Source: Amphiscolops sp. MND2022
Lineage: Eukaryota
Direction: 5' to 3'
Assembly (NCBI GenBank): GCA_964187785.1
Contig: OZ076409.1
Location: 69,132,001-69,196,000 of the forward strand
Length of the DNA: 64,000 nucleotides
Below the pieces are notes generated by a model that saw only the letters and a list, made by a program, of their open reading frames with translations, had not been told where the DNA came from and ran no database searches. The position numbers and the translations under genes are program-made. This document shows, piece by piece, positions 1,153 to 58,434 of this stretch. Each line of letters begins with the position of its first letter. Positions within the stretch are counted from its first letter, which is position 1.

Positions 1153-1197
1153 AGCCAATTTTTAAACCGAAACAAATTTCTTAACATAGAAAACGAA

Positions 1198-6408: not shown

Positions 6409-6545
6409 AAAATAAATGTTTAATTTATATTACAGGTACCGTGTGGACCAGACACAAGGGAATACCAAAACCCGAGACAGCACAAAAGCCAGCGGACTTT
6501 CTCCCAGAAGAATCCACAACCCCAGGACCCTCAAACCGAAATTGA
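4236..6545 (+). CDS. Predicted spliced accessory ORF nested in pol of element 1: join(4236-5076,5669-5808,5974-6310,6436-6545), about 475 aa
   Basis: GT-AG introns 5077-5668, 5809-5973 and 6311-6435 are conserved in position and phase in all three elements, and the spliced frame is open. The start codon is ACG here (ATG in elements 2 and 3); the next ATG is at 4281. Confidence 0.6.
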
Positions 6546-6574
6546 AGAAGATGCGAAAAGAATAGGGGGAGAAA

Positions 6575-6796
6575 TGTCATATTCGGTTCAAACCGGTTCA
6601 GACTACCATTTAACCTCTACCGAGATTCGGTCTACAAACTATCTAGTCTAGATACTAGAGTTGTTTACTAACAAACTCAATCTACATTAAATTACATTTG
6701 ATACATATGTACAATTGGATTTGATAGAGAACAGTCAAAACTAGAGATATAACTTTTATTCTTTTCCATCTTAACCTAGATCTAGAGAATACAACA
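6575..6796 (+). repeat. 3' LTR of element 1
   Basis: Direct repeat of 921-1142, preceded by the PPT and followed by the TSD. Confidence 0.97.
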
Positions 6797-23300: not shown

Positions 23301-26300
23301 GGGCCGACATGAGACGTTCTTGACTTGTTATTTCAATCAAGACCACAGACTCACAATAAATAGTCCATATTTTGCAAATATGTACTAAACTCCACGATTT
23401 TTTTGTTTTTGTGACGTTTTCAACGTTTCTCACCTTTGGTAACTCATAAAACTAGAAGGAACCAAAATGTCATCGTTTGGATCTATTTCGAGTCGTAAGA
23501 TTTGTCCGAACTTTTGAATGTTTCTAAAGGGTCCCACTTTGAATACTCTGATGCTTTGCAACCTCCAAACCTCAAAGAGAAACCCCATTTAGTATTTTAG
23601 TTTTCTCAGATCAGTGGTGTCGATTTGAAGTCAATTTTTAAACGATTTTGTTTAGTGGTTCTTGTTCATTCGCTTTCCTTGGACTTTGATGCTGAGTTTT
23701 TGAAAGTGTTGTTAGGCAAACAAACCAAGAAAGAATTGCAATAGCATTTTATTGCACCTCTTTTGTCATTTACAAAAACGCTCCACATTAGATGAAATTG
23801 GAAGAAAGTGGACACCGTAGAAGTTGATAAGCGCAGCTTTTTATGGTTTTTATTACGTTTTAATTTACTTCCATTCCTCGAAATGCATTCTGTTCTCATG
23901 CCCAGCGCTGAGAACAGGCACTCATTAGTTATTAAATATGCTGCAAGAAAACAGCCAAAAAGAGCGAAAAAGGATCCTCTCAACCATTAGATGTCCATAC
24001 ATAATCGTTTCCACAAGCGAGCAATCAATTTGACCAAGACATTCAGTCGACAGCATTTTTTAAAATCCAGGTCATTGGTTATAACAACCGGTCATAAATG
24101 CCTGGATAGGTTTATTGCGGACTGCGGAAAAATCAATTTATTCGATGACGTCACGCATGACAGGTCATGAACTCTAACCTCGGTGACAGTGGTGGTGTTA
24201 CCTATGACCGTGTTCTCCCTGTGGAACTGGTTCATCTGTGTTTTGGGGTCAAACAGCACTTTGCGTTCAGTGGTTGCTATACCCAGTGCTTGGGCCTGGA
24301 AAATATTTATCAATGACACAATGATCGGTTTGAAATTTACAGTTTGCTACCATTCGTTTTCTGATCAATGGAAAACTGAATTCTCAGTTGGTATTCGATA
24401 AATTCATTTCAAAGTTGACTTGGATCAAAGGAAGGAGAAAAAGATTTGCAGTACAAAAAATTCCAATTTATGGTAGGAAAATTTTTAAATGGCTCAGTTT
24501 TCATTTGCGGTACTATCAGTAGAAGCAAAAGAAGTCAATACTAGCCAAGTATTGACTCACAGATTTTGTTTTCAAACGTGACATTATTTTGACAAATTGG
24601 TAATACCATCTATTTATATGTCGTTCTAGTTCGAGGAAAAGTTCAAGCTCAGCGGCAACTCAATATATCAAAAGTTTGACCCTATTTGTGACCTTCGTGC
24701 AAAAGGTTTCACTCACAGAGACTGTAAAAAGAGAATGAGGTCAATGCTAATCCTACCTTTGCTAGTTCATCATCGTGATCAACATTGATAACACTGTTGT
24801 TACCCTGGGTCGTCTTCTGTTTATTGACTCCTTTGAGGTCGGGGGGTTCTATCCGCCTGATGCCGGCCGTGAATGCTCCCTCGGCTGCTAAATTTCCAGC
24901 CCTGCCCAGGTGAGAATGGAGTCGCCTGATGAGGAGGTTGTATGCGGAGAAGACACTGCAACTCTGATTCTGCAGAAGAATCTTCACTGCCTGTGTTGTG
25001 TTAATCTGCAGTCGGTCCTCCATAAACTTGAGCACCGACCGGTTCAGAGACTCTGCTTTTATCTGGACAGACAAGAACCAAGATTGATGATCAATATTAA
25101 ACAGGTGCAAACACAGGCTCGGGTAGAAACGGGAGGCGGAAATTTCGTCGTCAGAAATTTCGTCGTAAGAAATTTCGTCGTATTAGCAAACCCAGAAATT
25201 TCGTCGTCAGAAAATTCGTCGTCGGAAATTTCGTCGTATTGATTAGAACAACAGCGTTCACCGAAAGATATCATTTGAATTATACAATTACTTATTTATT
25301 AAAATGAGATCTTAAGAACAAGTTTCATTTTGACACCAAAATTGAGTCAAAAAGTTAATTGCATTCAATCAACTCATCAAGACGCTTATTAAGCAATGGT
25401 ATATTTTCAGTCCTACCGGTGGAACTACTTACCGGAGCTTTACAATACAATTCAAAATTGCTCCGGGGGGAAGTTTTGCTTTTTTGTCAGAAAATTATCA
25501 AAAAATCCTTTGGTAATGGAAATTTTTGTGTCGAAAGAACTTCGTATTGGGGGGATAAGAAACAATTGTTTCTTATCCCCCAATACGAAGTTGTTTCGAC
25601 ACAAAAATTTCCATTTTCCTAAAAACCCATCGACCTCCAGAGGTGGACCATCCATGGACCTTCCCTTGTCATTGATAGTATGCCCTTGGGTCTCAATACG
25701 GTATGTGTTTCTACGATTACCAGAAATTTCGTCGTCGGAAATTTCGTCGTCAGAGATTTCGTCGCAAGAAATTTCGTCGTCGGAAATTTCGTCGTCGGAA
25801 ATTTCGTCGTCGGAAATTTCGTCGTCGGTGATTACGTTCTATAAAACGTCGCATTTTCTTTAATCAATTAGGAATCGCCTTATTATTGCGTCTTAATAAT
25901 TATCGATAATTGTGCAATAATTACTATCATTGACTACTTTTTGTTATGGTTTCGGACCTTATAACTCCTCATATACACCTTAAGGTCGTTTAATTCGACT
26001 GACATAGCCGGAATGTGAATTTTTTTATCTTTGGCTATCAAAATTAAATCTGTGCTGATATTTTGGCCGTTTTAATAAAATATTCCCATGAGAATTATCT
26101 TTCTTCTGTAGCCACTGAAGGTTGATTGCTCACTTGACTTGAACAAAGCTACAATAAAATGGAAGTTTCGAGGTCCACACATTGTTTTTTGAAGGATCTC
26201 GATTTTCCGACAATGAGGAAATTTTCTTTAAAAATTTCTCCTTGTTGATCGGGATCTGATACCGGTTTCTTTAGAACTTATTCCAGCAATTTTGATTTTT

Positions 26301-29300: not shown

Positions 29301-32300
29301 AAACTTCGGTATCTTTTCAAATCGAAATGTAAAAAAAAATCCGCTTCCTGATATATCGCCTTTTCTAATGAAAATGTGGTATATCCATATTTTTCAAACT
29401 TGAACCTGATTTATTTCGAGTATTTTCAGAAAAAGTTGGGGTTTCGAGTTGGGGGTAATAAGATGGAACGTTTCTTTTCCACAATTTGTATTTTGAAATC
29501 ACCGTTTCCTGTTATGAGACGAGAAAGTCCCCTTTATCCGAAATTTTAATATTCTATTACTTAGAATATCTATTACTTAGACTTCTATTAGATCTTACAA
29601 AGACGTAAATATTTTTTTCTCGAATTGCCATTGCAGAACTCTACTAGCTGATTTATAATGATTTTCAGGGACTGTTTTAGGTCAAAATAATCCCGTTACA
29701 TTTTTTGGCAATTAATTAAGGCCTGGAGGTGATTGTTTTTTTTCAAAAACATCTTATCAGTTTCCTATGCAAAATACGGCAAGGCCACTGTGCGTATTGT
29801 ATTGTATCTACGTTCGATGCCGCCACGGTGACTTCGAAACAAAATATGTGATTCTAACAGGAAGCTGTTTCTGTCTTCACAGGCTAATACGATTACTGAA
29901 TTCTGCATTGACAAGCCCACTGACGGGGAGTATGCCGGAAAATTTCAACGTTTTAATATCTAGAGGAAATTAAGTCACCATAAGGACGATATGATAGTGA
30001 AAATTGAACAAAACAGAGTTAGGAATAAATGTAATAATAATATAGTCAGACTTCTATTGCATGTATGAAACTTTTTCACCCTCGAACAAAGTTGACCCAC
30101 TTCTGCATGACTGACCCAGTGGGTCAAATGACAAAGAAATCAACTCAGCAGTTTGAAAGCAACGACCAAAGATGCATAAAAATGCGTCAAAACCATTTTA
30201 ACCTTTAACCTTTGAACAGGGAGCGGACTAAACGTATAGACGTCAAACATCTTTTCGTGAGAAAGGGAAAAGGACGGGACTCTCGTATTCCGGTACCGTG
30301 AAACCAAAGAAGTTTCGGATGACTAAAACTGTTGGAGCCGAAGTTTGCGAAAAACAGGAAATAGGTTCTTGGTACAAGAAAAACATAGAGGGTTGTTTAA
30401 AAAAGGAAAAACTCTCCGAATTTTTGAGCTGATTACGGATGTTAGCTAACCTGACTCACAACACGTAACGATGAAAAAATTTAAACATTTAAATCAAAAT
30501 TATAATTATTGAAAGATGCTTACATGCTCCAGACATCTACTTTGGGCCCATATTTGTTCTTGCCAAGAAGCTCGGGGGCGGCATAAGCAGGAGATCCACA
30601 TTGGGTGGCCTGTTGGAAATCACCTAAGCGGCCATTTTCTTCCAATTTGAAGTTGCGACTTAGTCCGAAATCTGCAAAAACACACATAAAGTTAAAATCA
30701 AGACCCGTCTGGTGTCAATAATGCATCGAAAAACGGCCTAATGATGAAGTTTCAGATCGATGAAGCATCTCTAAATGCTAAGAATTAGATTGATCTTCTC
30801 AAAATTTATCTAATCAAAGTTGAGTTTTCAAAAGCTTGATGACGTAGTTAAAAGGCTGGGTCATCTCCTGTTAGTTTGGCATTATCAGCAAAATCAATTG
30901 CAATGGTGACCACAAAATGTATGCCCAATGTGAAAATAACTCACCTATAAGCTTCATATTCTTTTTCTCGTCCAATAGTAGATTTTCCACTTTCAAATCC
31001 CTGAAAGAAAAGTATGCAATTTTTTTCCACACAACAATTATTTCAAAGTTCAGTACCTTCGAATTCAGGTGAAAAATAACTAGGAATATTGTAGATAATT
31101 TCTACGGAGGTGGTCTTTGTAACTTTTTTTGGGACATACTTTTTGCTTAAAAATCTCCGATTCTCAGCTTTCTTCTCTCAAAAATTTTTGATCTTGTATT
31201 CAATGTATATCAAAGCAATGGTATGCACTGAAACAGCCCTGCTCAATGTCTAATAGTTTCAGTCAATGAAAATTTCGAAATTTCGGGAAAGGGGAATGGA
31301 GGGGGGGGTAGTTCGGGAATACAAACCTGTGCAAGATGCCTGCCCTATGTAGATGGTCCACAGCCGATATAATCTGTCTCACATACTTCCTGGTCTCTTT
31401 TTCGGGTAAGCTCTTCCTGAAAGTTTATTCGATTGAATTCACTGAAATTATTTTTTGGCATTAATGTTTCTTCATAAACTTTTCCCGTTTTCACTCTCGT
31501 CCTACAATTTTCTAAAATTTCATTTCAAAAATTCCAATGAAAACTCGTTGTTTCAACCAAAAATGTTTGAAAAAGTTTCTATAGTTTCGAATTGAGAAAC
31601 GCGTTTTCGAAAGAGCCAAAAGACAGAAGACAAAAATGGGCTTTGATAACAAATAACAAACATGGTCCTTCAAGTGCCAAAATAAAACCAAGAAACATTA
31701 AAAAACACGATGAAAAAATGAAAAAAAAACAAGCTTTTCTGAGATATACCTGATCTTTAGGTACTCCATCATATCTCCCCCTGAGCACAGCTCCATGACG
31801 AGATAGTAACTGTTCTCTGTCTCTAAAATGTCGTACAACTGGATGATACAAGGGTGTCTGACTAGCTGCAAGATCCTACCTTCTCTGCGAAGGTTTTTGT
31901 GCACGTACGAATCTTCTTTGGCTCGCTTCTTGTCAATCACTTTAATTGCCACCTTAAATAAAACAGTTTCTGGTTGATCAATGAGTTCACTGGTTTCAGC
32001 ATTGCGAATCATTTCCAATAGCTTTTTCAAACATATTTTACCAAAGAAATTCACAAAAATGAACAGAAAATGAATGAATTGCAAAGTATGAGCTTCAGAA
32101 CTGTTGTAATCTAGCTTTATGGTTAAAGAGTATCTCAGTACAAAACTCAATTGTTTTCTAGCTTACTATACAAGCTTTCTCATAGTAGATCATCTGCGCT
32201 TAAGTGGCAGGTATTTAAATAAAAGAACATCAAATACAAGTGTAGTAGACAGTTTATAGACTAATTAAGTTAATTGTCTGCACTCTCTACATTTCCCCCC

Positions 32301-35300
32301 TCACTATTGGCTGATGTTCGGCCAATGGGTTTCTGTTCTTCTACTGTATGGCGGTAGTTCCTCCAATGGTCCAGTTGTTTATGGACGGATGACCGATCCT
32401 CGCTTGTGTGGTTGTCACGGTGAGTGTTTGTCCGTGACGTCAGTTTGCTGTCCGTTGTATGGACTAGTTGAGGTTGCTTGGTTCCGTTTCCATTTGGTTC
32501 AGGTTCAGCCTTTCTACGGTGTTTCCTGTAATCATGACATACTGGGTTATTATATCTAACAATTGGGTTAGTTTTGTTAGTCTTTTTGATCTGCGTACTG
32601 TTTTTTCTTCTTCGTGTTTAATATCTGCTTCTAATTCAGTGCTAGAGCTCAGATTACTGATCAAGTCTAATTCAGAATTTTCAAAGTTGTTCTCTTCCCC
32701 CGTTTTAGGAAAAGAAGTCAGATTTTTAAACACCTTACCATTATCATCTCTGATAAAAAGTTCATCATTCGCTTGTCTAGCGTCTTCGATAGCACGGTTG
32801 ATCTCCGTGTCTGTCATGTTGGCTGCGGTGATGGTAAGTGGGCCAGTGCTGCCCGTCCCTCCTGGTGGGGATTGGTGGGGGCTTGAGTTTCTCCGGTCTC
32901 GTATTAATTTCACTGGTCTGCCTCTGCCGTACGTACCGTTTTTCACCGTGGCGTTGTCCGGTTGGTCCGTGGTGATAGGGCTGCTTGTCTCTGGTAGCGG
33001 TATCTCGGTGTCTGATTCGATCACGTATGCCCTCTTCAGTTGTGATGGTGATCTTGTAAACCGGCCGTCTGGCCCTCTCGGCCCAGTTCCTCTGTTGTTG
33101 TTGCATTCCTGGTTAAAATTACAGATGGGTTTACTAATAGATTTCTTGTGTATTATTCTTCCGTTTGGCGTTGTTACGGTATGGTTCGTTTCCGAAATAG
33201 CTATATTCGGTTTATCTGTATATGCACTTTCGATCTTTGTTTTGTGATGTTTTTTCCTAAGAAAAGAAAAGGGTGGTTACTAACTCCTTTATCGCTTTTT
33301 CTTGTCTTCATCGGTAGCTGGTCGGAGACACAGCCAACTCCGCTGAATGAATATACCTGTAAGGTATCTGGTTTCGCTGAAATGGAATTCTTTGTTAGAT
33401 TTTTCAAGTTATCTAAGCTTAACAGATTAGAAATTTCCGTGTTTGGTTTTCGACCGTAATGTAGTTCGAATGCGGACTTCTTTAGTTTCGTGTGAGGTGT
33501 TTTTCTCATCACGTCTAATGACAAGTCTAGAGCTTTTCCGAATCGTTCTCCGGCCTTAATGTTCGTTAGAAGATTATCTTTCAGAGTTCTGACCCCTCTT
33601 TCTACTAAGCCTGTGGGGGTGTGGATGTACGGTGTTCCGTAGATCAGTTTAATGTAGTGTTTTTTGCAGAAATTGCGGAAAGTGCGGCCCGTAAACGCAG
33701 TCGCCTTATCGGTTTTAATTGTCTTTGGTATACCGTTCAGTTGAATATATTGTTCAAGGAATGTTACCGCCGTTTCCCCGTCGGTGTGTTTGCAGAAACT
33801 GGCTGCCGGCCATTTGCTGTACCGGTCAATGGATAGTAGTATATAAAATCGACGGTTATTGTCCGTGATTGGTCCGATGAAATCCAATTGGATTTCTTCG
33901 TTCGGACTATTCACCGGGGGTAGGTTATTTTTTTTCCGTGCTGGGTATGTTAGGTTTTATGCTCTTACCGGACATTTTGCAGGGGATGCAAGTTTCACAT
34001 TTTTTCTGTATGGCTTCTGTCATCTTCGGCCACCAGAAGTGTCGAGCTGCCAGAGTCATCTTATTGATGGCTGGATGTCCTTTGTGCAAAGGGCTGATGA
34101 CTGTGGTTCGGAGGTTTTTTGGTACTATAATTCTGTCTTCCATGAAAACAAGACCGAACCGGCTGGATAATTTTCTTCTGACCGTTTGATATTCATCAGG
34201 TATCATTTCGTGCTGTTGTCTTTCGAGAAATACCAGGGTTTTTAGCAAGCTGGGGTCGTTTGTGGTCTCAGTCATCAATAGCTGCAAATCCGTGGAGAAG
34301 TTCTTTTCTGTCTCCCGCACTGCGTGTTCGAGGTTCCATTCATTTCGCTCTTCTGCTGCGACTCTTGGTGCGTGTCCCATCTTTACATACTGGACACTTT
34401 TTACCCCGACGTATCGTGCCGAATTTATTGCTGGCACCTCTAGGACCGAAGGGTCTTGGTCCGTTTCCGAGTCAATCTCACCTTCTTCCATAGGGATTGG
34501 TGCGGAGGATGGGCCAGGTTTGTCCGGTTGGTGTTGGTGGACTGGGGTTGGTCGGTCCATGTCCCAATATGGGTCCACTGTCCATTGCTCGGAGTGACCG
34601 GTTTGTGGTTGATAGCCCCCTTTGTGTTGCGGTCCGATAATTTGTCGAAGGTCTTCTGGTTGTCGATTACTGGTAAGTTGTCGTAGTCGTTCCTCTATGA
34701 CTTTCCTCTCGTTGCGAAGGAATTTAGGTTCATGGTAGCGTTTCCATCTCCCCCCGGTCATGCGGTAAATTCCGGGTTTGACAATTTCTTTCCACCGAGT
34801 CGTTAGCTTGGTTATTTCGGCGGAATTAAATCTTGCTTCGATGTTTTCGATCGTTTTAGCATCCATTTTTAATGTGGTATGCTTTAAGTTTTTTAATTTG
34901 TTTGGCTTTGAGCGTGTGTGTACGGCGCTGTTAAGGCAATCAATGGCAGTTTGTTCACGCGTGTCGTTTGTCGATGGCTCGTTGTTCGATTTGCGTTCAC
35001 TTATCTCGGTACCGTTTTCTGATTGGCTCGCATGGTTGCTAAGGCAACCGTATTTGGAGATGAAGCTGTAGTGTGGAATGATATTGTTGATTACGTATTC
35101 TTCGTCGTACGTATCGTCCGCTTGTGGTGGTAATACCGGATTTCTGCTGAGATAATCCGTGAGTGCTAAGTGTTTGCCTGCTATATGGTTTACGTTGATC
35201 GTGAAACGTGCTAACCGGTCCAACCACCGTGTTAAGCGTGCGCTATATGTTTTATTGGAGCGATTTCGTTTAATTAATGGTTCTAATGCCTGGTGATCCG

Positions 35301-38300
35301 TCAAGAGTTTAATAGGTTTACCATAAATATATAGACGGAAATGTTCTAGGCCCCAAACTACTGCCAGTAGTTCGAGTTCATTGATGGCGTATTTTTTTTC
35401 TGTGTGTGATAGGAAGCGACTTGCAAAACCAATGGGTTTTAGTGTTCCGTTCGGTTGTTCTTGCCATAAGGTTGCCCCTAGGCCTTTTGTGCTCGCGTCG
35501 GTTGTTATCACGTTTGGATAATCGGAGTTGTAATGTGCTAGACACGGTATTTCCGTGATCTTTTGTTTTAAATTTTCGAAAGTCCGTGTATGTTCTTCCG
35601 TCCAGAGCCATTTGGTATTTTTTTTCAACAACTGTCTCAGACTATCGGTTTGGGCGGAAAGGTTGTCAATATATTTTGACAAATACTGGATGGCTCCCAG
35701 AAAAGATTTTAATTCCTTTTCGTTGTTCGGTTGTTTCAGTTCTTTTATAGCCAGTAGTTTGTCTTGTAACGGTCGGATTCCGGCTTGATCAATCCGGTGA
35801 CCGATCCATTCAATTTCTGTTTTGAAAAACTCGGATTTTGTCTCACTCAGTCTGTATCCAGCGTTTTCGAGTTTGGTTAGGACGTCAATTAATTCTTTCA
35901 TGTGTTCTTCTTTGGATCCTTTCGTTACCACGATGATATCATCTAGCCATGCTGGATGTTTGTTTTCCAGTGTCTGGTCGATCTTTTCTTGGAATATCGT
36001 CGGTATATCCGCTAACCCATAAAATCCTTTTAGGAAGCGGTAGTAACCGGTGAAGTTTCCTCCGGTTACGGCGAATATGCACAAGTTTCTGGCTGATTTT
36101 GAAAGTATGAGCTGACCGTAGGCATAATCTAAATCGAATTTGGAAATCCAGATTTCATCTGCTGGACCGTCTGCTATTTTTCTCGATATTCTCGAAATTA
36201 GCTCTTCCATGTTCGGCATTTGAGCTTTTCGTTTCACGGTTATTTCGTTTAGCTTTCTTGAATCTAACGCAATTTTTACGGATTTATCTTTACCGTGATG
36301 ACTGCTGGGCTCACGAAGCAATTTTCGTCAATATTGTTGGCCTTTTCAATGTGGCCTTGTTTTATTAACTTTTCTATTTCTTTTTCCACCGATTGTTGCA
36401 AATGTATCGGTATGGGTCTTCCCTTCTGTTGTATCAATTTGGCATCTTCTTTCAGTTGTATTTTCACTTCTAGCCCGTTTACTGTATGGTTTTCATTGAA
36501 CAGCTTTTTGAATTTTGTTTTTAATTTGTTACATCTGGGTCTTCTTTTATTTGATGTATTTGTGGGACGGTCGTATCGGTCTCCAGCGTTATTCCCAATT
36601 TTTTCATCCAGTCCAAACCTAGCAGAGGGTTTGTTTTCTTGGTTGTTACTAGAAGCTCCAGTTCTTTTCGTGTTCCGTTAATTTCTACTTTCGCGGTTGT
36701 TTTCCCTTCAAATCGTATCCGGTTGCCATTCACGTACCGGTATTCGGTTTCTAAGGGGTGTAACGGTGTTAACTTGTTGAATTGTGATTTTAGTATTAGC
36801 GTTACTGGTGAACCGCTGTCTATTATGAATTTAATTGGTCGGTTGTTAACCAATGCGGTGATTGTGAAGAATTCCGGTCCGTTGCTGCTCATCTACCGGG
36901 TTGAACGTATCTTTTGTTTTACTGAATGGATTGTGTTCGGTGTCCAGTCGTCTTCACCTGCGCTGCTTGTTTCACCTTCCATTAAGTGGTTTACTCTTTT
37001 GTTTGCGCGGCAGCATTTAGCGAAATGGCCAATTTTGCTACATTTTGCACATTTCTTTCCTCTGGCGGGTCATTCATGTTGGCGTGACCAGTTCGGTGCT
37101 CCGCAACGGTTGCAGTCAATCTTTTTAAATTTTGCCGGTTTTTCTAGTTGTTCTTTTGTGGTTTTTGTTTTTCGTTTGTTTACATATCGGATTTTCTTCT
37201 CTTCCTCTGTTTCGGGTGAGTCGTTTAATTTTTCGTACATATACTCATGTATTGCATCGGTTATGGCTTCTACCGACATATCACTCTTTCTAATTTTCTT
37301 TTTCAAGTCGTAATCACCGGTTGATTTACCGATCAGTGACAAAAATTTTGATGCTATGAGTTCTGCTGCGGTAACTGTTTCAAACTCGCAGTTCTTTTCC
37401 ACTTCTAATATCCGTTTCCATACATATGCTGCAGTTTCGCCGTCTTCCCGTTTCAAATCAAATCCCGTTTCAAATCAACGCTCTGCTATGGTGTACGTTC
37501 CTCTCTGGGGTGAAGTGTAGTCGGAAGGGTGTGTAGAGTTTGCTCGGTTCTCTTTCCCTGACCGTCTTTGTCATCTCCGTGATAGCATTTTGTCCGATTG
37601 CCCAGATAAAAATGTCTTTTATATCTGTTTCGAGTTGTTCACGGTATTGTGGTAGGATTTCTTTGCTGTTCGTCATGGTTGACAAATCTATGTCTTTCGT
37701 CATTTTTATATATTGGACGAATTTTCTCCACCACATGCTTGCATTGGCTTGGTCTTGCTTTTCTAGCGTGGGAATGGTGAGCTTCTGGGTGCAGTTCCGG
37801 TCTGCCGTCCTGTTCATTGTGTCGTTCGGTAACATTTGTCCATCTCGTTGTGTTCCCGTTGACGTCTGTGTGTTCTCTCCGTCTCCCGTGTTTTCGTCCA
37901 TATTGAATGGTTACTTTCTCTTTTTGGTGTGAATCGTGTATAGCTTGAACGCTATTCTGACTGCGCCATGTTGTAATCTAGCTTTATGGTTAAAGAAGTA
38001 TCTCAGTACAAAACTCAATTGTTTTCTAGCTTACTATACAAGCTTTCTGATAGTAGATCATCTGCGCTTAAGTGGCAGGTATTTAAATAAAAGAACATCA
38101 AATACAAGTGTAGTAGACAGTTTATAGACTAATTAAGTTAATTGTCTGCACTCTCTACAAGAACAGACACGGTCAAATAGCAGTTTGCAAAACATAGAAA
38201 AATCTTGCCAATGTAATAGTCGTGCGCATTTTCTGGTAAAATGTGCCGACTAAAAACGAGACATTCTAGAGGTGCTTGATTGATTCATCACCATTGATGT

Positions 38301-43002: not shown

Positions 43003-43237
43003 TGTGTCATCATCATGACCCCCTACCATAGATTTAGTACATACCGTAACATACGGGTTTAGACAGAGAGACTCGGTTGTTTACCAACAAAACTATAATT
43101 GCTGTCACTTTATGTTACCATATTTTGATACCATTATGTTGTTTAGTATAGAGAGAGATAACTTGATACTGAAAGAGATTTGAGTTGAAGTCTCAAAACA
43201 AAACCTTGTTTTAACCGTAGAATATCAGATTACAACA
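43003..43237 (+). repeat. 5' LTR of element 3
   Basis: Direct repeat of 48666-48904. Confidence 0.93.
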
Positions 43238-43300
43238 TGGCGCAGTAGCAAGATCCTATTTTTACCGTGTAAAAACCCATTTTACCCAACAAAAGAAACA

Positions 43301-46300
43301 ATGGCAACAACCACAAACAACATACTACTCCCTAATTTGAAGGCACCGGACTTGACGGAAAGAAATTATATACCCCCAAAAAATGGACCGAACGAATGAG
43401 ACACTATATCAAACGGATCCATGACATTGATATAAAACCGGCTTTATCCGGCGAAACAATGCCCACGAACAACGAATGGACGGAAAAGGAACCCACGATA
43501 AGACAAGATTTTATCTGGGGAGGCGGACCATGCGCGATAGAAATAATCTCAAAAGGAGACTTCAACACCGACCCAGACACGATCAACACCGAAAAACTAA
43601 AACAACTATTCAAAGACTACTACATGCCAAAACGCAATACCTTCCACAATCGTGGAGATTTCTTCTGGGAAAAACAAGAAGAAAATGAGACACCAGAAGA
43701 CCACTGGCGAAAATTAGTATCACTAGAAAAAGACTGCGATTTCAAAGATATCAAACAGGAAGACCTACTAATATCAAAATTCATCACCAGCATTACCGAC
43801 AAGAAATTACGGGAAAAAACACAAAACTTGAAAACCACCGTGGATTTAGTAACCCAAGACAGCTACGACAAGAGACATAAACAATCAACAACCCCCCCCA
43901 CCATTCGCAAGAGAGAAAGAAACAAAAGAGGAACCAATACAAAAAATAGCACCACGGGACAGACAAAACTACCGGAAAAAAACCGAAAAGACAACAAAAA
44001 ACAACAACTGTGGATTCTGTGGACAACAAAATTGGTCCCCACAACACGAATGCCCCGCAAAGACCGTGGAATGTAACAACTGCCACAAAATAGGACACTT
44101 CGCGAGAGTGTGCCGCACCAAAACAGACAATACAAGAAGACAGAGAGTTAACTACCACAAAGCGGCCAACAGCGAAGAAGAAGAGAGCGAACCGGAAGAA
44201 AATCAACAAATAACCCAAATTAACAAAATACTACCGGACAAAAATGATAATTACGGCATAAAATTGAAAATCAACGGGAAATATCAAAACTTTTCCATCG
44301 ACACCGGATCTCCGGTCACTATCATGCCAAACAACCCGAAACTATACAACCCAAAAGATATACACCCACTGAAAGAAAGATACCAAGACGTAAACAAAAA
44401 CGAGATCAAGCTCCTGGGAAGAGTATGGTCAAACATCGAATACAACGGCGAAACCGAAAAACTACCAATACTTATCACACAAAGCGACGACATCACACCA
44501 CTAATAGGTGTGAATTGGCTTAAACAAATACCAATTACCATCAACAAAATTCTATCGAACGAACACACCAACCAATCTAATAACATCCACCCAAAATTCC
44601 ACAAACTACTTGAAACGAACCATACAATCAAGAACGCGGAAGTGAAAATCCAAATGAAACCCAGATGTTACCCCATACAACTAAAAGCCAAACCAATACC
44701 ATACCACCTCCAGAAAGACGTAAAAAACGGACTAGACCGACTAATAAAATCCGGACACCTTGAAAGACTAGAAACAACTGAAGAAGACTGTTTTGTATCA
44801 CCCGTAGTAAGTACGATAAAGAAAGACAAGACAGTAAAAATCGCACTAGATGCACGCAAACTGAATGATAGCTCTGTGAAAAAAGACCGCATATGCCAAA
44901 CATGGAAGAATTATTAAACCAAAGATCCGCCGAACTATCAAGAAATAACCACGATCCAATCTGGATATCCGTGATAGACCTTGATTACGCCTACGGACAG
45001 ATGAAATTAGCACCGGAAACAAGCAAACACTGTAACTTCGCCGTAACCGGCGAAAACATGAATGGCTACTACCGATTCCTGAAGGGATTCTACGGTCCAG
45101 CAGATATACCAACGATTTTCCAAGAGAAAAATGATAGAACACTGGGCCACCAACTACCAGTCTGATTTGACGACATCATTATCGGAACAAAAGAAGAACA
45201 CACCCGAAAGTTTCATTCGGCACTCTCCAAACTAGAAAACGAGGGGTACCGAGCAAGCAAGAAAAAAATCAAAATTTTACCAAAAAGAAACAGTATGGCT
45301 CGGACATGCAATATCACAAGACAATATTAGACCAAACAAAAAAAACGGACGCAATCAACAAATTGAAACCCCCCACAAACACCAAAACACTAAAATCAAT
45401 TCTCGGCGCGATACAATACTTTGCAGAATTTATACCCAACATTTCTGAGAAAACCGACAACATGAGACAACTACTCAAAAAAGGAACAAAATGGGACTGG
45501 ACGACGGACAGAAATGCAGATTTCAACAAAATAAAACAAGAACTGGCAAAATTACCCTGCCTAGCACACTACATTGGTAACAAGGAAAATTTTGTCTTCA
45601 CAGATGCTAGCGACACCGGACTGGGAAAAGCACTATGGCAGAAACAAAGCAACAATGAGCTAAAACCGATCGCATTCTCCTCCAGTCGCTATCTAAGCAG
45701 CGCTGAAAAAATACTCGATCGGCGAAATAGAACTACTAGCCGTAGGGGAGAGTATTAGATTCCACCTATACGGAAAACAAGTACAACTATTCTCCGACCA
45801 CCAAGCACTGGAGCCACTTGTAAAGAGAAACAAAGCAAACAAACAATACAATGCACGACTGACACGGTGACTGGACAGATTATACCACTTCGACATCAGC
45901 CTAAAACACACCGCGGGCAAAGAAATCAAATTCACCGATTTTATTAGTTGCAATCATACCAAAAATCCGGAACCGGAAGAAAATTACGAAGAAGAACTCG
46001 TAATCAACGCCATCGCCCAACTAGCGACGGTAAACACCCAGATAGAACGGATTTTCAACCAATCAGACGGCGAGAACGAGACAAACGGAATAAACATGCA
46101 TGATACGCGCTCGCTAATTGACACGCGACGCCATCAAACAAACACCAGCCTTTATGACTCTAATTAACGTGCACAACAGCTACATCCAAATACGTACAAC
46201 AATAACCACCATTCCGAAATGGACAACGATCAACACGCACGCTATTTCCGCGTGGACGGACACCTTCGTTACCATTGGGGTGCAGACCAAGAAATCATGA

Positions 46301-48554
46301 CAACCATCAACAAAAGAGACAAATCACCCGAAACTTCGGAACTCGTTACAAGGCGAATAGAACTGGCCAAACCTGGAGCAATGAGGCCGCATTGGAATAA
46401 AAACCTGGACAGCGAATTTTACGTACCCAGACAACCGGAGGAAAACAATAGAAGAGAGATCAAACGGATCGACCTCAAACACAAAAGAAAAGAGAAAGAA
46501 TCACACATTGGCGGCGGTTATTTCAGAGACTTTGGCATCGAAATACCATGAAGAACAAGACAAGACGAAGAAACGCACAGAGACGCCGAATCAACCACCT
46601 CAAACAACTCCGAAGAGGCGATGGCAACACACGAACCTGGAGCCTACCCCGCAATACCGGTACAGGAATACCGCGACGGCCCAATCGAGGAAATAGCAGT
46701 ACACTACGTAAGAATAAATCGCGTAGTGGAAACGAAAGCAAAACGAATTAAACAACAAGAAGATAATGTGAGATCGGCCGAACTAGACTTCATGCTAGAT
46801 TTGGAGACGCTTATCAAAGAGACAACAGCCGAACCGGAACTAATTGAACTGAACTGCTGCCTAGAACACAACAAAACAAAAATGATCCCCAATGACTACA
46901 GAACGGTCGCAAAGAAACTAACCCACCGCTGGGGCATCATCATGGTCGACGACCGAATTGTCATACCGAAATCACTGAGATACGCCGCACTCAACGCCCT
47001 ACACTTTGGACATCCGGACTTCAATAAAATGTGTAGCGACGCAATGATATTCTGGTGGCCGAACATGCGGGAGGACATGCTCAGCCTGCCTAAACGCCGG
47101 TAAGAATTTGAAATGTCAAATACCACAAACCGAAAAAAAATTGAACCACCGAAAATACCGGGCAAAGAAATCCAATTGGAGTTCACGGGCAATCTACACA
47201 ATAGAAAACTATCTTCCACACCGTATATTCTAGTTGCGGTCGACAAAAACAGCCGCTGGCCGGTAACCAAAATTTGCAAAAATACAAACCACGAAACCGT
47301 AATTACATTCCTTAAAGAAGACATAATTATATACGGGGTACCGAAAGAAATAAATTCAGAAAAAGGAGGCGCCTTTATCTCAAAAGAATACAAAGAATTT
47401 TGTAAAGCGCAAAATATCAAATACATTTACGGTACCGCCAACCTACATACTGGCACCGGATTGGTCGAACGCACCATCCAATCACTGGAGAATCTGATCC
47501 TAACTAATCTGGAAGACGGACTAAACCTCCGCGAAAGTATAAATAGAGCACTATACGTCTTGAGATTCACCAAACATTCCGAAACCAAGAAGACACCGTT
47601 CGAAATACAGTTAGGACGGGCCCCAGAACCAGATTAACTAATCTAAAAAACGCTGTTTCAGTGGACTCAAAAGACCTCTCAGTATACATCACCCGAAACA
47701 CAGCCGGAGAGATCACCGACCACTTAGTCATGTCTAAGAAGAAGACGGTGGAGCCGAAATTCAGACGGAAAATGACCTTCTCCCAAACCAAAAAAACTAC
47801 GATCAATACGGTAAGTACAAACAAATTCAACTACTCATTCACATTTTATGAAAACAAAACAACAAGAAGAACTCCCTAGTAGCAAATTCAAAAATAGAAT
47901 CCCAACAGTTGTATCGGGAACGAAACATACCGTGACCACCGACAAGAATTAAATAATACACCGTAAACTGATTTCTAACCGCTATCGCTACTCTGTCAGC
48001 AAACAACAACGGTACCAACCAAACGAATAAATACATGCCAAAGTACCGCTGACCAGCCAACCTGCTCCAAAACCCTGAACAAACCGGAAACCAACGGCAC
48101 ACCCTGCATCTACAGCCGGAAAGAGGCGCCCAAACCCTCAAACCAAGAAAGAAACGAGGACTGGATAAAAAGAAAAGATCAGCCAAGAAGCAACTGGGGA
48201 CAATTTACATCCCCTACGAAGAACACCGACAAGGAAACGGATATGAACCTGAGTATCATATCAGACGACGACGACGACTTCGAGTGCTATAACAAATCCG
48301 AAGGAAAGCCGGTCCACACAAACAAAGACAACGAATTACAACTCCTTCCTAAAGAAAACAATTTGACCCCAGAACAAGGTACTAATATTGAAAAACCAAA
48401 ATCACTAGAACCAATAAGAAAATCCAAAAGGCTCCCATTCGCTAGACAAACCGAAAAACTAGGCGGAGTATCGTACCAAACAAACAAAAATAAAAAGAGA
48501 ACTGTTAATAACCGTAATGTATTACAGGAAAAGACGACGACAACAACGGACTAA
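43301..48554 (+). pseudogene. gag-pol polyprotein of element 3 (many stops and frameshifts)
   Basis: CNNCHKIGHFARVC, SIDTGS, DLDYAYGQ, FTDAS, HFGH..WWP and LVER fragments in collinear order. Confidence 0.92.
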
Positions 48555-48665
48555 AGTGAGAAGAATGACCGTACAATGCGGGAGAACAATGAAGAAATCC
48601 GTACAATACGGCACAGTGGACTGAACAAACAAACTTTTACCGGGTCACTCCGGAGGGGGGGGGGA

Positions 48666-48904
48666 TGTGACATGCCATCATCATGACCTCTACCATAGAT
48701 TTAGTACATACCGTAACATACGGGCTTAGACAGAGAGACTCGGTTGTTTACCAACAAAACTATATTTGCTGTCACTTTATGTTACCATAATTTGATACCA
48801 TTATGTTGTTTAGTATAGAGAGAGATACCTTGATATTGAAAGAGATTTGAGTTGAAGTCTCAAAACAAAACCTTGTGTTAACCGTAGAATATCAGATTAC
48901 AACA
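48666..48904 (+). repeat. 3' LTR of element 3
   Basis: Direct repeat of 43003-43237. Confidence 0.93.
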
Positions 48905-48978: not shown

Positions 48979-51900
48979 TGTCACAGTCCGCGCCCGGACT
49001 GGATTGAATTAAAAGCAAACTAAAACTAATATAGGTCACCGCTTCGCCAATACGATTGAATTTGCGTCGCGACTACGCTACGTCACAGCTATGGCAGCTA
49101 GCTAGAATTTCATTCCAAAATGTGACGTCTGCATGTCGTCTAACTTGGCAGCTAGTCAGAAATTCATTCCAAAATGTGACGTCAGCATCTCGTCTAACTT
49201 GGCAACTAGCTAGAAAGTATTCCAAATCAGACGACGATATGACGTCACAGCTATGGCAGCTAGCTAATTTTCATTCCAAATTTACGTCCACTATATCGGC
49301 TGACTAAGTGTAATACCAAATTTACGTCCACTCTACGTCCCAATTTTATAAAATTAGGCGTTTTAGTCTGTATTAAATTTAAAAGAAGCTTTATTTTACT
49401 ACGGTAAAACTAATCAAAGCTAGAATATGAATCAACGTCAACACTACGTCGCAATTTAACTAACCAAACCAAATTTTGAATCTACGTCAGTATTGACGTC
49501 GCAAATGATCAGGGTTATAACAGCCCATAGACAAAGACGACGCAGGATTGACGTCGCAAATGACCGGTTTATAACAGCCCATATACAAAGGCGACGCAAG
49601 ATTGACGTCGCAAATGACCGGGTTATAACAGCCCATAGACAAAGACGACGCAGGATTGACGTCGCAAATGACCGGTTATAACAACCCATATACAAAGACG
49701 ACGCAGTATTGACGTCGCAAATGATCAGGGTTATAACAGCCCAGTACTGATACGACGTCATTATGACGTCAACAGTGACCGCAAAAAAATGAAGTTGGCT
49801 TATCGTTAACAAAATTGACGTCATCAAAACGGTGACAAAACCTAAAGTTGGCTAATTACCAACGAAATTGACGTCGGCATAACGTCGACACAAAGGTTAT
49901 CAGGGTTAAGAATTAATCCTATAATCTATAATGACGTCATCAAAACGGTGACAAACTCAAAAGTTAGCTATGCTAACGAATTTGACGTCAGCAAAACGTT
50001 GACAACTTTGGTCAAACGAATTAATTTAATTCGAGGCCAATAAAAACGTGACGTTGGCAAAACGTCAACAATTGGGACTATAAAGGAATTAAAAGACAGC
50101 TTCTACCACCTCCCAAAAAGTGCTATACGGAACTACAGAGTGGTACCGGAAATGTCACATTCCTCTGGGAAAGCGTACAACCAAAACAATCCTCTCTTCA
50201 GTTTCGACAACCCCACGAGATATCTTCGTCCCATGAGAGTGGCCCTGTCACAGTCCGCGCCCGGCCTGGATTGTGGTTGCCAAGAGGCGCAGTTTGGACG
50301 TGATCATGGATGCATTATGAAAACAGTTAGACTATCTTATTAAACTGAAATAAACTGTGACAAGTTAAAACCATCAAAATCTAAATTATGAATGATTTCA
50401 GAACCTAAAAACATTCCGAGATAATTTCACACATTTCCGGACATGCGTAGTGATGACAGTAGAATTTTAATCATTTTCCTGCAAAATACAACCGAGACAT
50501 ATCATTGGAATTACTTGTCGCAAAAAGAACGAAACTACGTCAAAATGTAGGACTAAAGAAAACAAAAACAATTTGATAACCAATTAATTGACGGTACAAA
50601 ACTTCCCTAACAACATCTCTTTCATTTTATCAAGCCCCCGAGAACCATTCGTCCTATGAGAGTGGCCCTGTCACAGTCCGCGCCCGGACTGGATTGAATT
50701 AAAAGCAAACTAAAACTAATATAGGTCACCGCTTCGCCAATACGATTGAATTTGCGTCGCGACTACGCTACGTCACAGCTATGGCAGCTAGCTAGAATTT
50801 CATTCCAAAATGTGACGTCTGCATGTCGTCTAACTTGGCAGCTAGTCAGAAATTCATTCCAAAATGTGACGTCAGCATCTCGTCTAACTTGGCAACTAGC
50901 TAGAAAGTATTCCAAATCAGACGACGATATGACGTCACAGCTATGGCAGCTAGCTAATTTTCATTCCAAATTTACGTCCACTATATCGGCGGACTAAGTG
51001 TAATACCAAATTTACGTCCACTCTACGTCCCAATTTTATAAAATTAGGCGTTTTAGTCTGTATTAAATTTAAAAGAAGCTTTATTTTACTACGGTAAAAC
51101 TAATCAAAGCTAGAATATGAATCAACGTCAACACTACGTCGCAATTTAACTAACCAAACCAAATTTTGAATCTACGTCAGTATTGCGTCGACTAAGATTC
51201 AATTCGAACGGAACCTGGTATTTAAGCCAGGATTTTTCAGATTTACTTGAAATAACAGTGTTTGAATACGATTTACATCGAAAAGTCACAGTTTATATTC
51301 AATTTGTGTTAATAAAGTGAAGTCCAAGCTGGATTTTAAATGTACGTTTTGACTACCTAATTTCATAAGTTCATATGCTGTTTGACGATGTCACGTCGTC
51401 TTTTATTGTTGCTCAAAGGTGTTGCTCCTAACTTTAATCAGATAAATATTTATCAATTGTTGAAATATATAATTGTTTAGCCTCATGTAAGTCAGTCACT
51501 CTCTTAGCATCACCAAATTGCCTAAATCAAGATAATTAGTCATAATTTTCTTCAAGTGGAAATTCAAAATCAGGTATTAGTTGTTCACGTCAGCGTCATC
51601 TCCGCGTCGGTTTCTTACGAACCAAAGCAGAAAAACGGGGAAGTATTTCCGGTTTGACAGACTGAAGTAATATCTACTTCCTGCTTGGGAGGAAACAAAA
51701 GGACGCCGGAATGAAATGATATGATCATGATTGATGTCTAATACTAGATTAGAATTGCCGTGTCTTAAAAATTGACGATATGCTGACGAAGATCAAAGTT
51801 TTGCCGCAAAATTACAGGAAGTGACTAATATCTCGATGGAAATTAAAGTACGCGAGTATGAACAGATGATGCTAGGAGGGTATATATAGCTTGTACCTGT

Positions 51901-54250: not shown

Positions 54251-56248
54251 AAAATGACAAACGTTTCGAATTTCATCATTTTTGTTTAATTATCGTCAAA
54301 ATACCTTTGAGATTCATGGACTTGGATGTTGAAACTCCTAAGGCAAACTGGGCGAATTTGCCGTTTCGATGAGCTTTCGTCTCGAGGTAAGTTCAATTTG
54401 CAAATGAAAAATGCCTCAATTTGACCCTGAATATACGGAACAGTTTGAAGTTTTTGTCGTTTTTGATGCATTTTCTGTACAATTTTTGAGAGATTATGTT
54501 CTTAGCTCCAACACAATCAACTCAACAACGAGAGAAAGAGCCAAGCTTTACATTTTTGGAGAGAAAGTTGCATCGTTTTGCTTCAAAGACATTTCAGAAT
54601 GACTCCAAGAGGGTCGAAAAATTTGAACGTCTTTGTTTTTGTACATCTTGTGTACTTTCTGAATCATTTTGGAGACAACACGGACTGAACTCATTATACA
54701 GTAGGCCTTTGAAGGAATAATTGCAGACTTCGGTTGGAGATTGACTCAAAAGTGACTGGCAAAAATCGAAAACATCAAATTTTTTGTCGATTTCTGACCA
54801 TTTTCAGTGAATTTTTATATGAGATTAGAAAATTTCAGTCAAGTGAAAGCTTCGAAAAGCTCCAGATGATGATCCTAGGTCCGAAGCACGTTTTTCAAAA
54901 CTTGCCTAATTTATGGTGCAAAGTTTGCTCAGGTTGACCCAAATATTGGAAAAACTGATAGTTTTTTAAAAACTTCCTTAGGACATTTTGTGTACATTTT
55001 TTGATGACAAACAATAACTAAACCGGGTATCTTCAGTGGGCATTTTTGAGGAGACAGCTGCATTGTTTTGTTGGCATTGGCCACAAAAACACCCAAAAAT
55101 CAATGAAACTTTAAAAAAGCACGTTGTTTGACAAACGAATCCCAATTTTTGTTCAAACCACGAACGTTTTTGAAGAATAGAACTTCCAATAACCTGAGCG
55201 TTGAAACAATAAGGTATTCAAAACGCAATAGGGGAAAAGCGAATGAAGATCATCGAGTTTACAACAAAAGTGTCAAAGTTTCCGAATTGTCTTTATTTGC
55301 GACAACATAGTTCCGATTTTGGAACCTTCCCGAAACATTACTTCACTCAGAAACACCACAGGCTCAGGATTGAAACGTGTAGCTAGCAATAGTGTTTCGA
55401 AAGGATAACAGAGAAGTTAATTTGCACAACGTTCAAAAACTTTACTTAGCAAAACGTAACTTTCGACCACCTCGTTTGTCCAATAGTTAATTTTCAAAAA
55501 CCTCCAAGCAAAATTACTAGATATGGAATACACTTTCCAGAGGGAAATGTTTCGAGCGACGAAATTTCCGCCTCCCAGAAAAAGCGTTTTTTGAGGGAGG
55601 TAACGATCTTTTTATACAAGTGTCATTATAATTTTTTTCGGTTATCATTGTAACAAAATTGATATTTGTTTGTAAATTTACGGCCTGTTTTTTCAAATCT
55701 GACGAACCATAAACTGAAGTTAGGATGTCAATGGTTTGAAACGACAATAACTTTTATCCATCTCTTTGTTTTTCTCGAGTAATGGTTAGCAAAAGAAGCA
55801 TTATCTAGAGGTGGAAAATTACTTAGCAAGCCTAGACCGGAGACCTATGCACTACGAAAATCCAAAAATGGTTGACTTGAGGTACTTAGTTTTTTTCATG
55901 AATACTCTTAATTTCAGAGCTCCGTGGCGACGTGCTGGCACATTTACTGTCCAGAAACCTTCTCCCGTGCATGTAAGAAGTCCCCAACGTCCCTGAATAA
56001 TACTTCCTAAGTTTGAAAGCTGAAATTAGCAAAATCCAATAATTTAGACTGAAGCTCCAAGTTAACGTGGATCTTCAAAATAAGGTCAAACTGTTGGCTT
56101 TCTCGTTTCTTTCCGATTCCAGGTGAGAATATTCATCCAATCATGTCATCCATTGATACAAAACACCAGGGCAAAAATCAAAATTTTCCATATAAAATAG
56201 TGTTGAATCTTCATTTTTCTTGACGTCTGTTGTATTTTGTTATTTTGT

Positions 56249-58434
56249 GGTTACATGTCAAAATCTCCTAAGTCAAAATCTCCTAAGTTAAAATCTCCTA
56301 AGTTAAAATCTCCTAAGTTAAAATCTCCTAGACCTAAATCTCCTAGGTCAAAATCTCCTAAAATTAGAATAAAAGAAACTCATCGAAAGACAACTCGCCA
56401 ACTTAATTGAAGCGGAAAGCTGTTCGATTAAGAACAAAGGCTAACCTCGTTATATGTGGAGCGTGAGAATAATAGGCATCCCAATAAAACTGAACGCGTA
56501 TTGAAACATTGATTTACCGTTAGCAATAATATTTGACAACATGTCTGAGATTCACTTTCAAATTTAAAAGGTCACACTGTCAATCATCAAAACAATATTA
56601 TATCGAACTTGCTCAATTCCAATAATTTGCATTGCCGAACTGTCAACCATCACAATAGATCTCAATGACCGCAATTGAGTTAGAAACCTCAATGTGTCAA
56701 AGTACAGATTCTTTTCAGGTCAAATGCAGCCAAAACCTTAAAGTACCAAACAAAGTGTTTACTGTTTGTCGTTCGATTTTAAAAATTTTCAGACATATAC
56801 CTGTCGAAAGTGTGAACCTTTCTTAGCTTCATTTCTTCCTTCAGATGCTGCGTAGCATCTCAAAAAAGAAATACCTTAAGTGCAAACTTTCAATGTTTCT
56901 GACGATGGCTAAACGGCGTATTTGCTAAAAGGGAGCCAACCTTTAGTCCGAACTTGGCTTCTCGTCACAAGTGTTAACGCACTGAGATTAAATTGCCTTG
57001 TTAGTCACGTAAATACACTTAGACTGTTCCAGGAGGCTGCAAGGAACGTCAGATCAGAGACATTAAAAGTTGAATTGTCAATTTTTGCATGAAAATAAAT
57101 GCACAAAAAAATTTTTATTGTAAATGCGCCATTGCCCTCAGAAAAATCACTTTATCGTCGGAGTTGTAGTTTGAGCAAAGTCGGTATCTTTTTCTTGTTG
57201 GATTTTCTGCTCCAGCCAGTCCTTGTAGGGTGTTGAACTTGTGTACTAAGGAGTCTTTTTTAATCTGGCGCAGAAAGGTCCACAAATTGGGATGAGTTCC
57301 TTGAAACAGCGATTGCAAGCCAAAATGCCAGCCTTCAGTAGCATTGTTTGTTCGTGCCAAACCTTCTAGGGCTGACGTCGATTGATTCCATATTGAAGGG
57401 GGGAAACTTGGAGGGCGATAAACATTTCCAATTTTATGGCCGATGTACGTTTTTTGGAAGTAGCCGGCAACAGCATCAATTTTTTCTGTCAAGTCATCGC
57501 TGAGAGATAATTTTTCCACTTCAGCTATGACTTCTTCCACGGCAAGGTCGAAACCTTCCTCTTCTTCGTTAGTTGGAAGGAATGAACGCGCGGGAATCAT
57601 GCGGAGGCTCAGAGCAAGCTCTGCATGTTGTTCATAAATTGATTTCAAACCCACTGAATTTATTTTCCTCATAAATGACTGGCAAAGATGAAAAAAGCAG
57701 CCCGATAAGTTGGATGCTGGAAATTGTTTCTGGAATGCGTTCATTGCTGCCTTTTCGAAATCAAGCAATATTCTACTGGGTTGCGCCCGAGGTATTAGGA
57801 TTTTTATTGCAGCTAGCATCCGGTCATATGTTCTCTCTGTTTTGTTTGGGAGAAGAATATATACACAGGGTGGATTATATCCATTGACTGTAATATGGAT
57901 AGTAAAAAGTTGGAAAAAAATCAAATCACCGCAAGTGATGACTGTCGATTGGCATTTGAACTGCCTGTTGTAGCGGCAAATCTAATGGATGGTTGTTTTT
58001 GTTTGTTGTTTCTTAGTAAATTCGTACCCATTGTAGATCAGGGTATCTTTACTTTTGTTGGAGCGACCGATTTCAAAATTCATTTTGCACACAAATGTTT
58101 ATGGAAATAGCAAGATTGCTGGTAATTTCGGTATTTTCACACCTTTTGGTGAATCCAGTCGACCATCTTTAATTGACAATTACGTTTTCGTCACGTTACT
58201 TTAATCGCGTAAATGAAAACGGTGTGGTGGTCGTTTTAATTACCTTCAGTCATTTGTCAATTATGTAATAGTCTTTCAATGACTGTCTCAGCTATTAATG
58301 CTTAATCAAAGTTACTTTCACACTATGAAATTCAATTTAGGAGATTATGACCTAGGAGATTTAGGTCTAGGAGATTTTAGCTTAGGAGATTTAGGTCTAG
58401 GAGATTTTAACTCAGGAGATTTCGACCTGATACC
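56249..58434 (-). mobile_element. Mutator-superfamily (Phantom/Foldback-type) DNA transposon, internally deleted
   Basis: TIRs built of 15-bp tandem units AAAATCTCCTAAGTT (about 56257-56362 and inverted 58336-58427). GG...CC ends. Imperfect 8-9-bp flanking duplication GTTATTTTG/GTAATTTTG. MULE transposase remnant inside. Confidence 0.85.
57115..58083 (-). pseudogene. FLYWCH + MULE transposase remnant
   Basis: MNFEIGRSNKSKDTLIYNGYEF...H*IC....C (FLYWCH-like, TAG at 57984) in frame with FFQLFTIH...LLDFEKAAMNAF...GCFFHLCQ...RTNNATEGWH. The first catalytic Asp (DGTF) region is missing. Confidence 0.85.

Follow-up and report, generated by a model that had tools for sequence, protein, structure and literature searches.

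The integrase of Ty3/gypsy retrotransposons is usually assumed to exist only as a cleavage product of Gag-Pol, and at the locus described here the integrase region doubles as an intron-exon gene. The window, the whole 64,000-nt stretch of DNA that we analysed, holds three Ty3/gypsy LTR elements: E1 (921-6796, plus strand), E2 (32102-38159, minus strand) and E3 (~43020-48904, plus strand). The family has thousands of candidate places in a genome of 1.07 Gb. In our reading, these elements splice three introns from the region of pol that encodes integrase, and the product RNA would give a catalytically dead, integrase-derived protein of ~470-490 aa, predicted to be a nuclear positive regulator of its own element; we give this reading as a whole an even chance.

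E2, all of whose features lie on the minus strand, is bounded by two TG..CA LTRs of 190 and 191 nt that differ by one substitution and one indel, and is flanked by a 5-bp target-site duplication, GTTCT. The 191-nt 5' LTR (37969-38159, TG..CA) is followed by a primer-binding site (PBS), and a polypurine tract and the 3' LTR occupy 32102-32309 (LTR 32291-32102). The order of domains is that of Ty3/gypsy elements, protease-reverse transcriptase (RT)-RNase H-integrase, with Pfam matches to RT, RNase H, the H2C2 zinc domain and the rve core, and the top PDB sequence match is Ty3-G Gag-Pol. Named relatives are distant K02A2.6-like proteins only; judging by the double zinc knuckle, the elements may belong to the Mag clade. 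Several stops and frameshifts break the gag and protease region (36280-37910), and the RT and RNase H region (35090-36327; Pfam RVT_1 and RT_RNaseH) is unbroken. The RT motif of E2, WLDD, is found throughout the element lineage, whereas the next relatives have YIDD, FIDD or YLDD.

The part of pol downstream of RNase H can be divided into four exons and three introns. Exon 1 (33969-34866) starts at a conserved ATG and encodes a basic N-terminal domain specific to the lineage (~aa 1-66), an acidic disordered linker and the integrase N-terminal helices with the HHCC zinc site. Intron 1 (33377-33968) equals the integrase catalytic core (DDE; Pfam rve). Exon 2 (33285-33376) is in the pol frame and is separated by intron 2 (33109-33284), which holds the conserved C-terminal integrase block (PF.F.EK ... 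ISKP), from exon 3 (32739-33108), also in the pol frame, a low-complexity stretch with RxxxG[RKQ][FY], an AT-hook-like GRGRP motif and acidic patches. Intron 3 (32526-32738) carries the basic RR[ST]xR integrase tail, and exon 4 (32464-32525), in a frame that differs from pol, terminates the spliced ORF. The three introns measure 592, 176 and 213 nt and all run from GT to AG. As the preliminary description had it, join(34866-33969, 33376-33285, 33108-32739, 32525-32464) amounts to 898 + 92 + 370 + 62 = 1422 nt and reads from ATG to TAG over 473 aa with no internal stop. The homologous join of E1 (4236-5076, 5669-5808, 5974-6310 and 6436-6545, plus strand), likewise reported there, is 1428 nt long and open; its exon 4 lies behind the pol stop and its start codon has been lost, with ACG in the window copy and ATG in 28 of 29 scored family copies. 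In E3 the homologous exons lie at 46219-47099, 47662-47810, 48000-48378 and from 48528 on the plus strand (region 46219-48555), and exon 1 is broken by a stop at 46549 and by a deletion. Across all three elements, exons have 43-53% GC and 4-20% T and introns 30-42% GC and 18-25% T; at four-fold sites the GC step is smaller (51% versus 42%, P = 0.013, the E3 part being counted in the wrong frame after intron 1).

What had drawn attention to this join was that the 3' frameshifts of E2 break the unspliced integrase only. Comparison with 29 sister copies placed them at ~33936 (intron 1), ~33256 (intron 2) and ~32575 (intron 3), so that all three do fall in introns and the third, earlier called probable, is real. 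All three indels are in or beside A-runs. The chance of finding three of three lesions in introns is (981/2403)^3 = 0.068 in this single copy, and the RT-RNase H of E2, an 800-codon frame, is as intact as the spliced frame. The intron 2 site is also struck in six sisters, on both sides of a family-splitting in-frame indel, and therefore reflects recurrent slippage or an assembly slip. We conclude that the three intronic frameshifts reflect ordinary slippage in A-runs after insertion, or assembly slips there, and that their sparing of the exons is likely due to chance. The exon model that they had been thought to support stands on the intron-less genomic copies, the codon choice at splice sites and the selection on exon 4 described below, whereas the lesion pattern (P = 0.068) adds little to it.

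The same lesions had suggested that defective copies are kept to supply the accessory protein, their lesions avoiding the exons. We compared 30 copies in each of three families, the best 30 of 40 scored and hence biased to full-length copies; L065 was left out as a near-duplicate, and L021 and L037 as partial. Distinct frameshifts numbered 77 in 127 kb of exons (0.61/kb), 78 in 83 kb of introns (0.94/kb) and 86 in 99 kb of RT-RNase H (0.87/kb), an overall deficit in exons (P = 0.004 against introns and 0.012 against RT-RNase H) that agrees with the supply of protein by dead copies. The deficit is limited to homopolymer indels (0.16, 0.42 and 0.39 per kb in exons, introns and RT-RNase H), and long homopolymer runs are scarcer in the GC-richer exons. 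Frameshifts outside homopolymers are spread evenly (0.45, 0.53 and 0.49 per kb; P = 0.27), with a weak residual in the two young families (5 exon, 7 intron and 10 RT events; P = 0.066). Private nonsense changes, observed against expected, were 18/20.5 in exons, 12/16.3 in introns and 16/23.4 in RT for E1 and E2 together, and 32/34.9, 17/18.0 and 16/13.3 for E3; those in exons fit the neutral expectation. The spliced frame is open in 18/29 copies of the E2 family and 13/29 of the E1 family, compared with 17/29 and 10/29 for an RT-RNase H stretch of equal length (pooled, 31/58 versus 27/58; Fisher P = 0.58), and exon 1 of six E2 sisters has suffered nine frameshift events. In the window itself, E1 has lost its start codon and exon 1 of E3 is broken. 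Inserted copies thus decay evenly, which means that dead copies are not retained as suppliers and that selection works in the replicating lineages. The idea of selected supplier copies is largely refuted and very improbable.

Codon choice at the exon borders was examined in 12 natural copies, one per subfamily, drawn from 40 loci and from sister copies and representing three lineages; their integrase cores are 53-90% identical. At donors 1 and 3 the Gly codon is GGT in all 12 representatives (background 12%), and seven other conserved Gly columns, used as a control, have GGT in 0-6 of 10-12. Acceptor 2 is CAG in 12/12 (background 21%), as against 0/12 in the single control column. Acceptor 1 reads TCA-G in 11 representatives and TTA-G in one, and the preceding codon ends in T in 12/12. 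Acceptor 3, which was placed by its motif in two lineages, reads TA[CT]AG in 12/12; it is translated once as Tyr-Arg and once as Leu-Gln, and in one case it lies beyond the pol stop. At all of these sites, copies within one lineage are not independent. All six GT-AG sites are intact in 30/30 copies of the E2 family and, site by site, in 89-100% of 148 further copies; L143, L156, L161 and L082 each deviate at a single site, and several further loci were unmappable. No donor was found at the corresponding place in three other gypsy families of the genome. These data indicate that rare codons maintain the splice sites over the 12 subfamilies. The conserved Gly-Lys at donor 1 was rejected as splice evidence: the GKN peptide also occurs in distant relatives, so that at this site codon choice alone counts. 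In three more distant relatives, P0473, P0490 and P0443, the spacer between RNase H and integrase is likewise enlarged and GKN follows the zinc site, and P0443 additionally retains the peptides around acceptors 1 and 2.

A second line of evidence comes from copies that have lost their introns. Database proteins of the element are unnamed, unspliced gene calls, with no annotated spliced model among them; one of the 296, P0241, a gene call on DNA whose exact locus lies outside the 127 places scored for one of the samples below, joins exon 3 directly to exon 4. Among 148 copies sampled by exon 1 protein match (72/127 + 40/144 + 36/150 places), we found 26 deletions of at least 40 nt, nine of which run from donor to acceptor, and two more such losses lay outside this filter. 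Exact intron loss affects five of the 148: L281 and L338 are without all three introns, L297 without introns 1 and 3, and L200 without intron 2, and in L204 donor 1 is joined to acceptor 2, a frame-breaking skip of exon 2, with intron 3 also lost. Natural queries bearing the junctions retrieved five more, L205 and L206 (intron 3) and L353, L354 and L355 (all three introns). L353 is exact at all three junctions; in L354 and L355, which are tandem neighbours, three of six junctions are a few bases off relative to sisters that are only 82% alike. L354 (1-2778) is also missing ~2.5 kb from the protease to exon 1. Intron by intron, exact loss was seen for intron 1 in L281/L352, L297, L338 and L353 and for intron 2 in L200, L281, L338, L353, L354 and L355; intron 3 is lost in L204, L205, L206, L281, L297, L338 and L353. 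In total, ten copies from all three lineages have lost one to three introns each at GT-AG borders.

In comparison with the nearest unspliced sister, the lost segment starts with GT and ends with AG, and the chance of such a donor-acceptor match is ~3e-5 per deletion. Deletion through microhomology was rejected as the origin of these copies, the homology being 1-4 nt only and three exact losses occurring in single copies. The intron-less copies are instead reverse transcripts of spliced full-length RNA. Those with upstream sequence retain RNase H, gag or the 5' LTR, so it is splicing of full-length RNA that they prove and not the internal promoter discussed below. Partial splicing and exon 2 skipping also occur on LTR-to-LTR RNA, to judge from the mixed losses. 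For the E2 lineage this record covers donor 1, donor 2, acceptor 2, donor 3 and acceptor 3; acceptor 1 and the exon 1-exon 2 junction are recorded in the E1 and E3 lineages, a pattern search for that junction giving 0 matches in the E2 lineage, and no intron-less copy was found among the copies searched of E2's own subfamily. Intron-less retro-copies offer a genome-internal record of splicing where RNA data are absent.

Exon 4 provides the evidence for a protein product. In the E1 lineage (33 codons, seven copies), the spliced frame has a pN/pS of 0.32 versus 1.24 and 1.58 for the other two, and variable columns number 17, 15 and 30 at the three codon positions (P = 0.04). For the E2 lineage, the first seven codons, a short stretch compared in pairs that are not independent, have pS 0.71 and pN 0.10 in the spliced frame, versus 0.25 and 0.22 in the pol frame. 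These values indicate purifying selection on exon 4 in its own frame, even where it is placed beyond the pol stop. We rejected translation of exon 4 by read-through in the E1 lineage, since neither the length nor the frame of the interval between the pol stop and this exon is constant. Open joins free of internal frameshifts encode 470-478 aa despite differing exon sizes, although in the E3 lineage translation may begin 12 codons further upstream. We consider it very probable that the spliced frame is translated.

Each intron removes one conserved integrase module. Intron 1 takes out the catalytic core, intron 2 the beta-rich C-terminal block and intron 3 the basic tail, whose RR[ST]xR motif falls inside this intron in 12/12 representatives. 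Retained are the basic domain (aa 1-66; 16 K/R, predicted helices and a hairpin, pLDDT 53-78), the acidic, disordered linker and the integrase N-terminal helices with the HHCC site (pLDDT 71-87). RxxxG[RKQ][FY] is present in 11/12 representatives and GRGRP in 5/12, and the new C-terminal tail is neutral to acidic. The N-terminal part gave 426 profile matches at E < 0.001; ten of these that were looked up are unnamed gene calls, and 12 that were read are copies of the element group. RNase H and the HHCC site are 301-363 aa apart in members of the WLDD group, 165-272 aa in the next relatives and 70-107 aa in most of the distant ones. Exon 3 has no Pfam match, the ESM Atlas returned nothing beyond the zinc-binding domain, and searches of Pfam, PDB sequences and the ESM Atlas revealed no likeness to CERV, Rev or another named regulator.

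How the conserved ATG is reached is a separate matter. A Met follows the hypervariable linker in all lineages, and CCAATCA stands 130-256 nt upstream of the ATG in 12/12 representatives (the ATG position in L173 being estimated), with 0.11 expected per 270 nt; in E2 this CCAAT box of a predicted promoter inside pol lies at 35020-35026. Conserved codons of four-fold or higher degeneracy are invariant more often in the zone before the ATG than in RT-RNase H, with 6/8 versus 16/142 in five E2-lineage copies (P = 1e-4) and 12/12 versus 49/141 in four E1-lineage copies (P = 8e-6). The longest invariant-codon run in the E2-lineage scan is a 15-nt element (35035-35049) that resembles an RFX X-box; alternatively, it could be a splice acceptor. 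No conserved strong donor able to feed exon 1 was found in the 5' leader, five of 12 leaders being correctly located. These features point to a second, stand-alone mRNA that probably arises from the internal CCAAT promoter and starts at the conserved ATG. An LTR-type retro-copy requires a PBS, so that such an mRNA would leave no retro-copy of this kind. Within exon 1 of the E2 lineage, 0/70 synonymous sites are invariant, versus 16/142 in RT and 6/70 in the integrase core.

The splice sites are used on the LTR-to-LTR genomic RNA and remove the three integrase introns. We propose that the spliced RNA is translated into an integrase-derived protein devoid of the catalytic core and that this protein would act in the nucleus, likely by helping full-length genomic RNA to be made or to be exported unspliced. 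The motif make-up of the product and the analogy with known systems make a regulatory role as probable as not. With strong, used splice sites in its genomic RNA, the element must get unspliced RNA out of the nucleus, and because CERV meets this need in Cer1 with a similar layout, a positive nuclear regulator is favoured. An RRE-like conserved RNA was sought in intron 1, where synonymous conservation was not raised (P = 0.10 and 0.64). More tentatively, and as something we think possible rather than probable, an env-less lineage may have turned into a 'complex' retroelement: a four-exon regulatory gene overprinted on integrase, whose internal NF-Y-type promoter fires first and whose product then turns on the full-length RNA or brings about its export, giving a cascade of the Tas/Rev type made from a core enzyme.

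After the nuclear regulator, we rank a self-made brake, an integration cofactor, a valve that works through no protein and, last, the supplier copies dealt with above. In Ty1, copy number is limited by p22, a shortened Gag made from an internal transcript, and a product with the integrase N-terminal zinc domain might likewise co-assemble with full-length integrase and poison or limit integration. Retention of the HHCC domain, the precise removal of the catalytic core and the likely internal promoter all suit such a brake. In so large a family (thousands of candidate places), however, a brake acting in trans would be a public good and should be under weak selection, yet exon 4 and all six splice sites are preserved across 53-65% nucleotide identity; the new N-terminal domain and new tail would also be left unexplained, and we regard the brake as unlikely. 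Also unlikely, and placed below it, is an integration cofactor that accompanies the cDNA as a tether or as a subunit for nuclear import and targeting, whether produced by itself or released by processing from the end of a spliced Gag-Pol. Because splicing of the full-length RNA preserves the frame, a core-less Gag-Pol could be packaged, and RxxxG[RKQ][FY] (11/12) and GRGRP (5/12) are presumably minor-groove-type motifs. Full-length integrase already has both motifs, however, and the basic tail, which may serve import or chromatin binding, is spliced out.

Splicing might also do no more than reduce the output of integrase, as a dosage valve or as a sink imposed by the host, with an inert spliced protein. 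Partial splicing and the frame-breaking skip of exon 2 in L204 favour such a valve, but selection on the amino-acid sequence of exon 4 acts in a frame reached through splicing only, the join is in frame across three lineages, and the ATG and promoter motifs are conserved, which makes the valve improbable. The supplier copies come last; the lower overall density of exon frameshifts and the residual in the two young families speak for them, and the openness equal to that of RT-RNase H, the neutral nonsense changes and the homopolymer-bound deficit speak against them.

Multiply spliced or internally initiated RNAs give rise to the regulators Tas of foamy viruses and p22 of Ty1. Such RNAs are common to Rev, Tas, p22 and the gene described here, but none of those three is cut from integrase by removal of the catalytic core. 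Rev of complex retroviruses is a regulator made from multiply spliced RNA (PMC10309623). CERV of the C. elegans Ty3/gypsy element Cer1 is a multi-exon protein of 517 aa needed for export of the genomic RNA (PMC10309623). Its exons 1-3 are in the gag frame and exon 4 is in a frame of its own, as here a core-gene frame is followed by a private exon 4; both genes yield a multi-exon spliced mRNA inside an LTR retrotransposon through ordinary splice sites on genomic RNA, and the products are similar in size (517 versus ~473 aa; PMC10309623). The private last exon on the product of a multiply spliced element RNA is thus of the CERV/Rev type. CERV is assembled from gag pieces and a separate 3' ORF (PMC10309623), whereas here all exons come from the integrase region and the introns are integrase domains; unlike CERV, the gene described here likely has an internal promoter, and an export role is suggested for it by analogy.

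Tor3b and Tor4b of Oikopleura have an internal promoter, Penv, in pol, and are animal LTR elements in which, as predicted here, a pol-internal promoter drives a 3' gene (PMC4402516). As described there, that gene is an unspliced env ORF; the present elements have no env and carry a spliced integrase derivative instead. In plant Ty1/copia (EVD), conserved splice sites within a single gag-pol ORF generate shGAG, a second product from gag-pol as here, but through one intron at the protease that gives Gag, versus three integrase introns in our elements (PMC5580714). That source reports that no conserved splicing was observed in Arabidopsis Ty3/gypsy elements (PMC5580714). Spliced accessory genes, pol-internal promoters (PMC4402516) and conserved gag-pol introns (PMC5580714) are thus already known. 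In the literature searched, largely openly accessible papers and including PMC13547354, we found no multi-intron gene carved from a Ty3/gypsy integrase. In this very abundant family, the intron-exon structure is preserved across lineages whose DNA is only 53-65% identical. The gene shows how a core enzyme can give rise to an accessory gene with no capture of new DNA, and it turns the way in which env-less elements export unspliced RNA into a question testable with junction-specific probes.

E2 sits on the same strand within a 9-kb intron of a host protein-kinase gene, whose exons on the minus strand include ~41150-41013 (subdomain I-II, upstream) and 31952-31750 (VAIK, downstream), and the strong splice sites of E2 could serve the kinase transcript. 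Elsewhere in the window, an exact 300-nt direct repeat with its copies 1690 nt apart spans 48979-50968, a 54-nt tandem array lies at 49488-49743 and two 15-nt tandem arrays lie at 25122-25855 and 56242-58434, one pair being inverted; the direct repeat and the arrays are probably other mobile elements.
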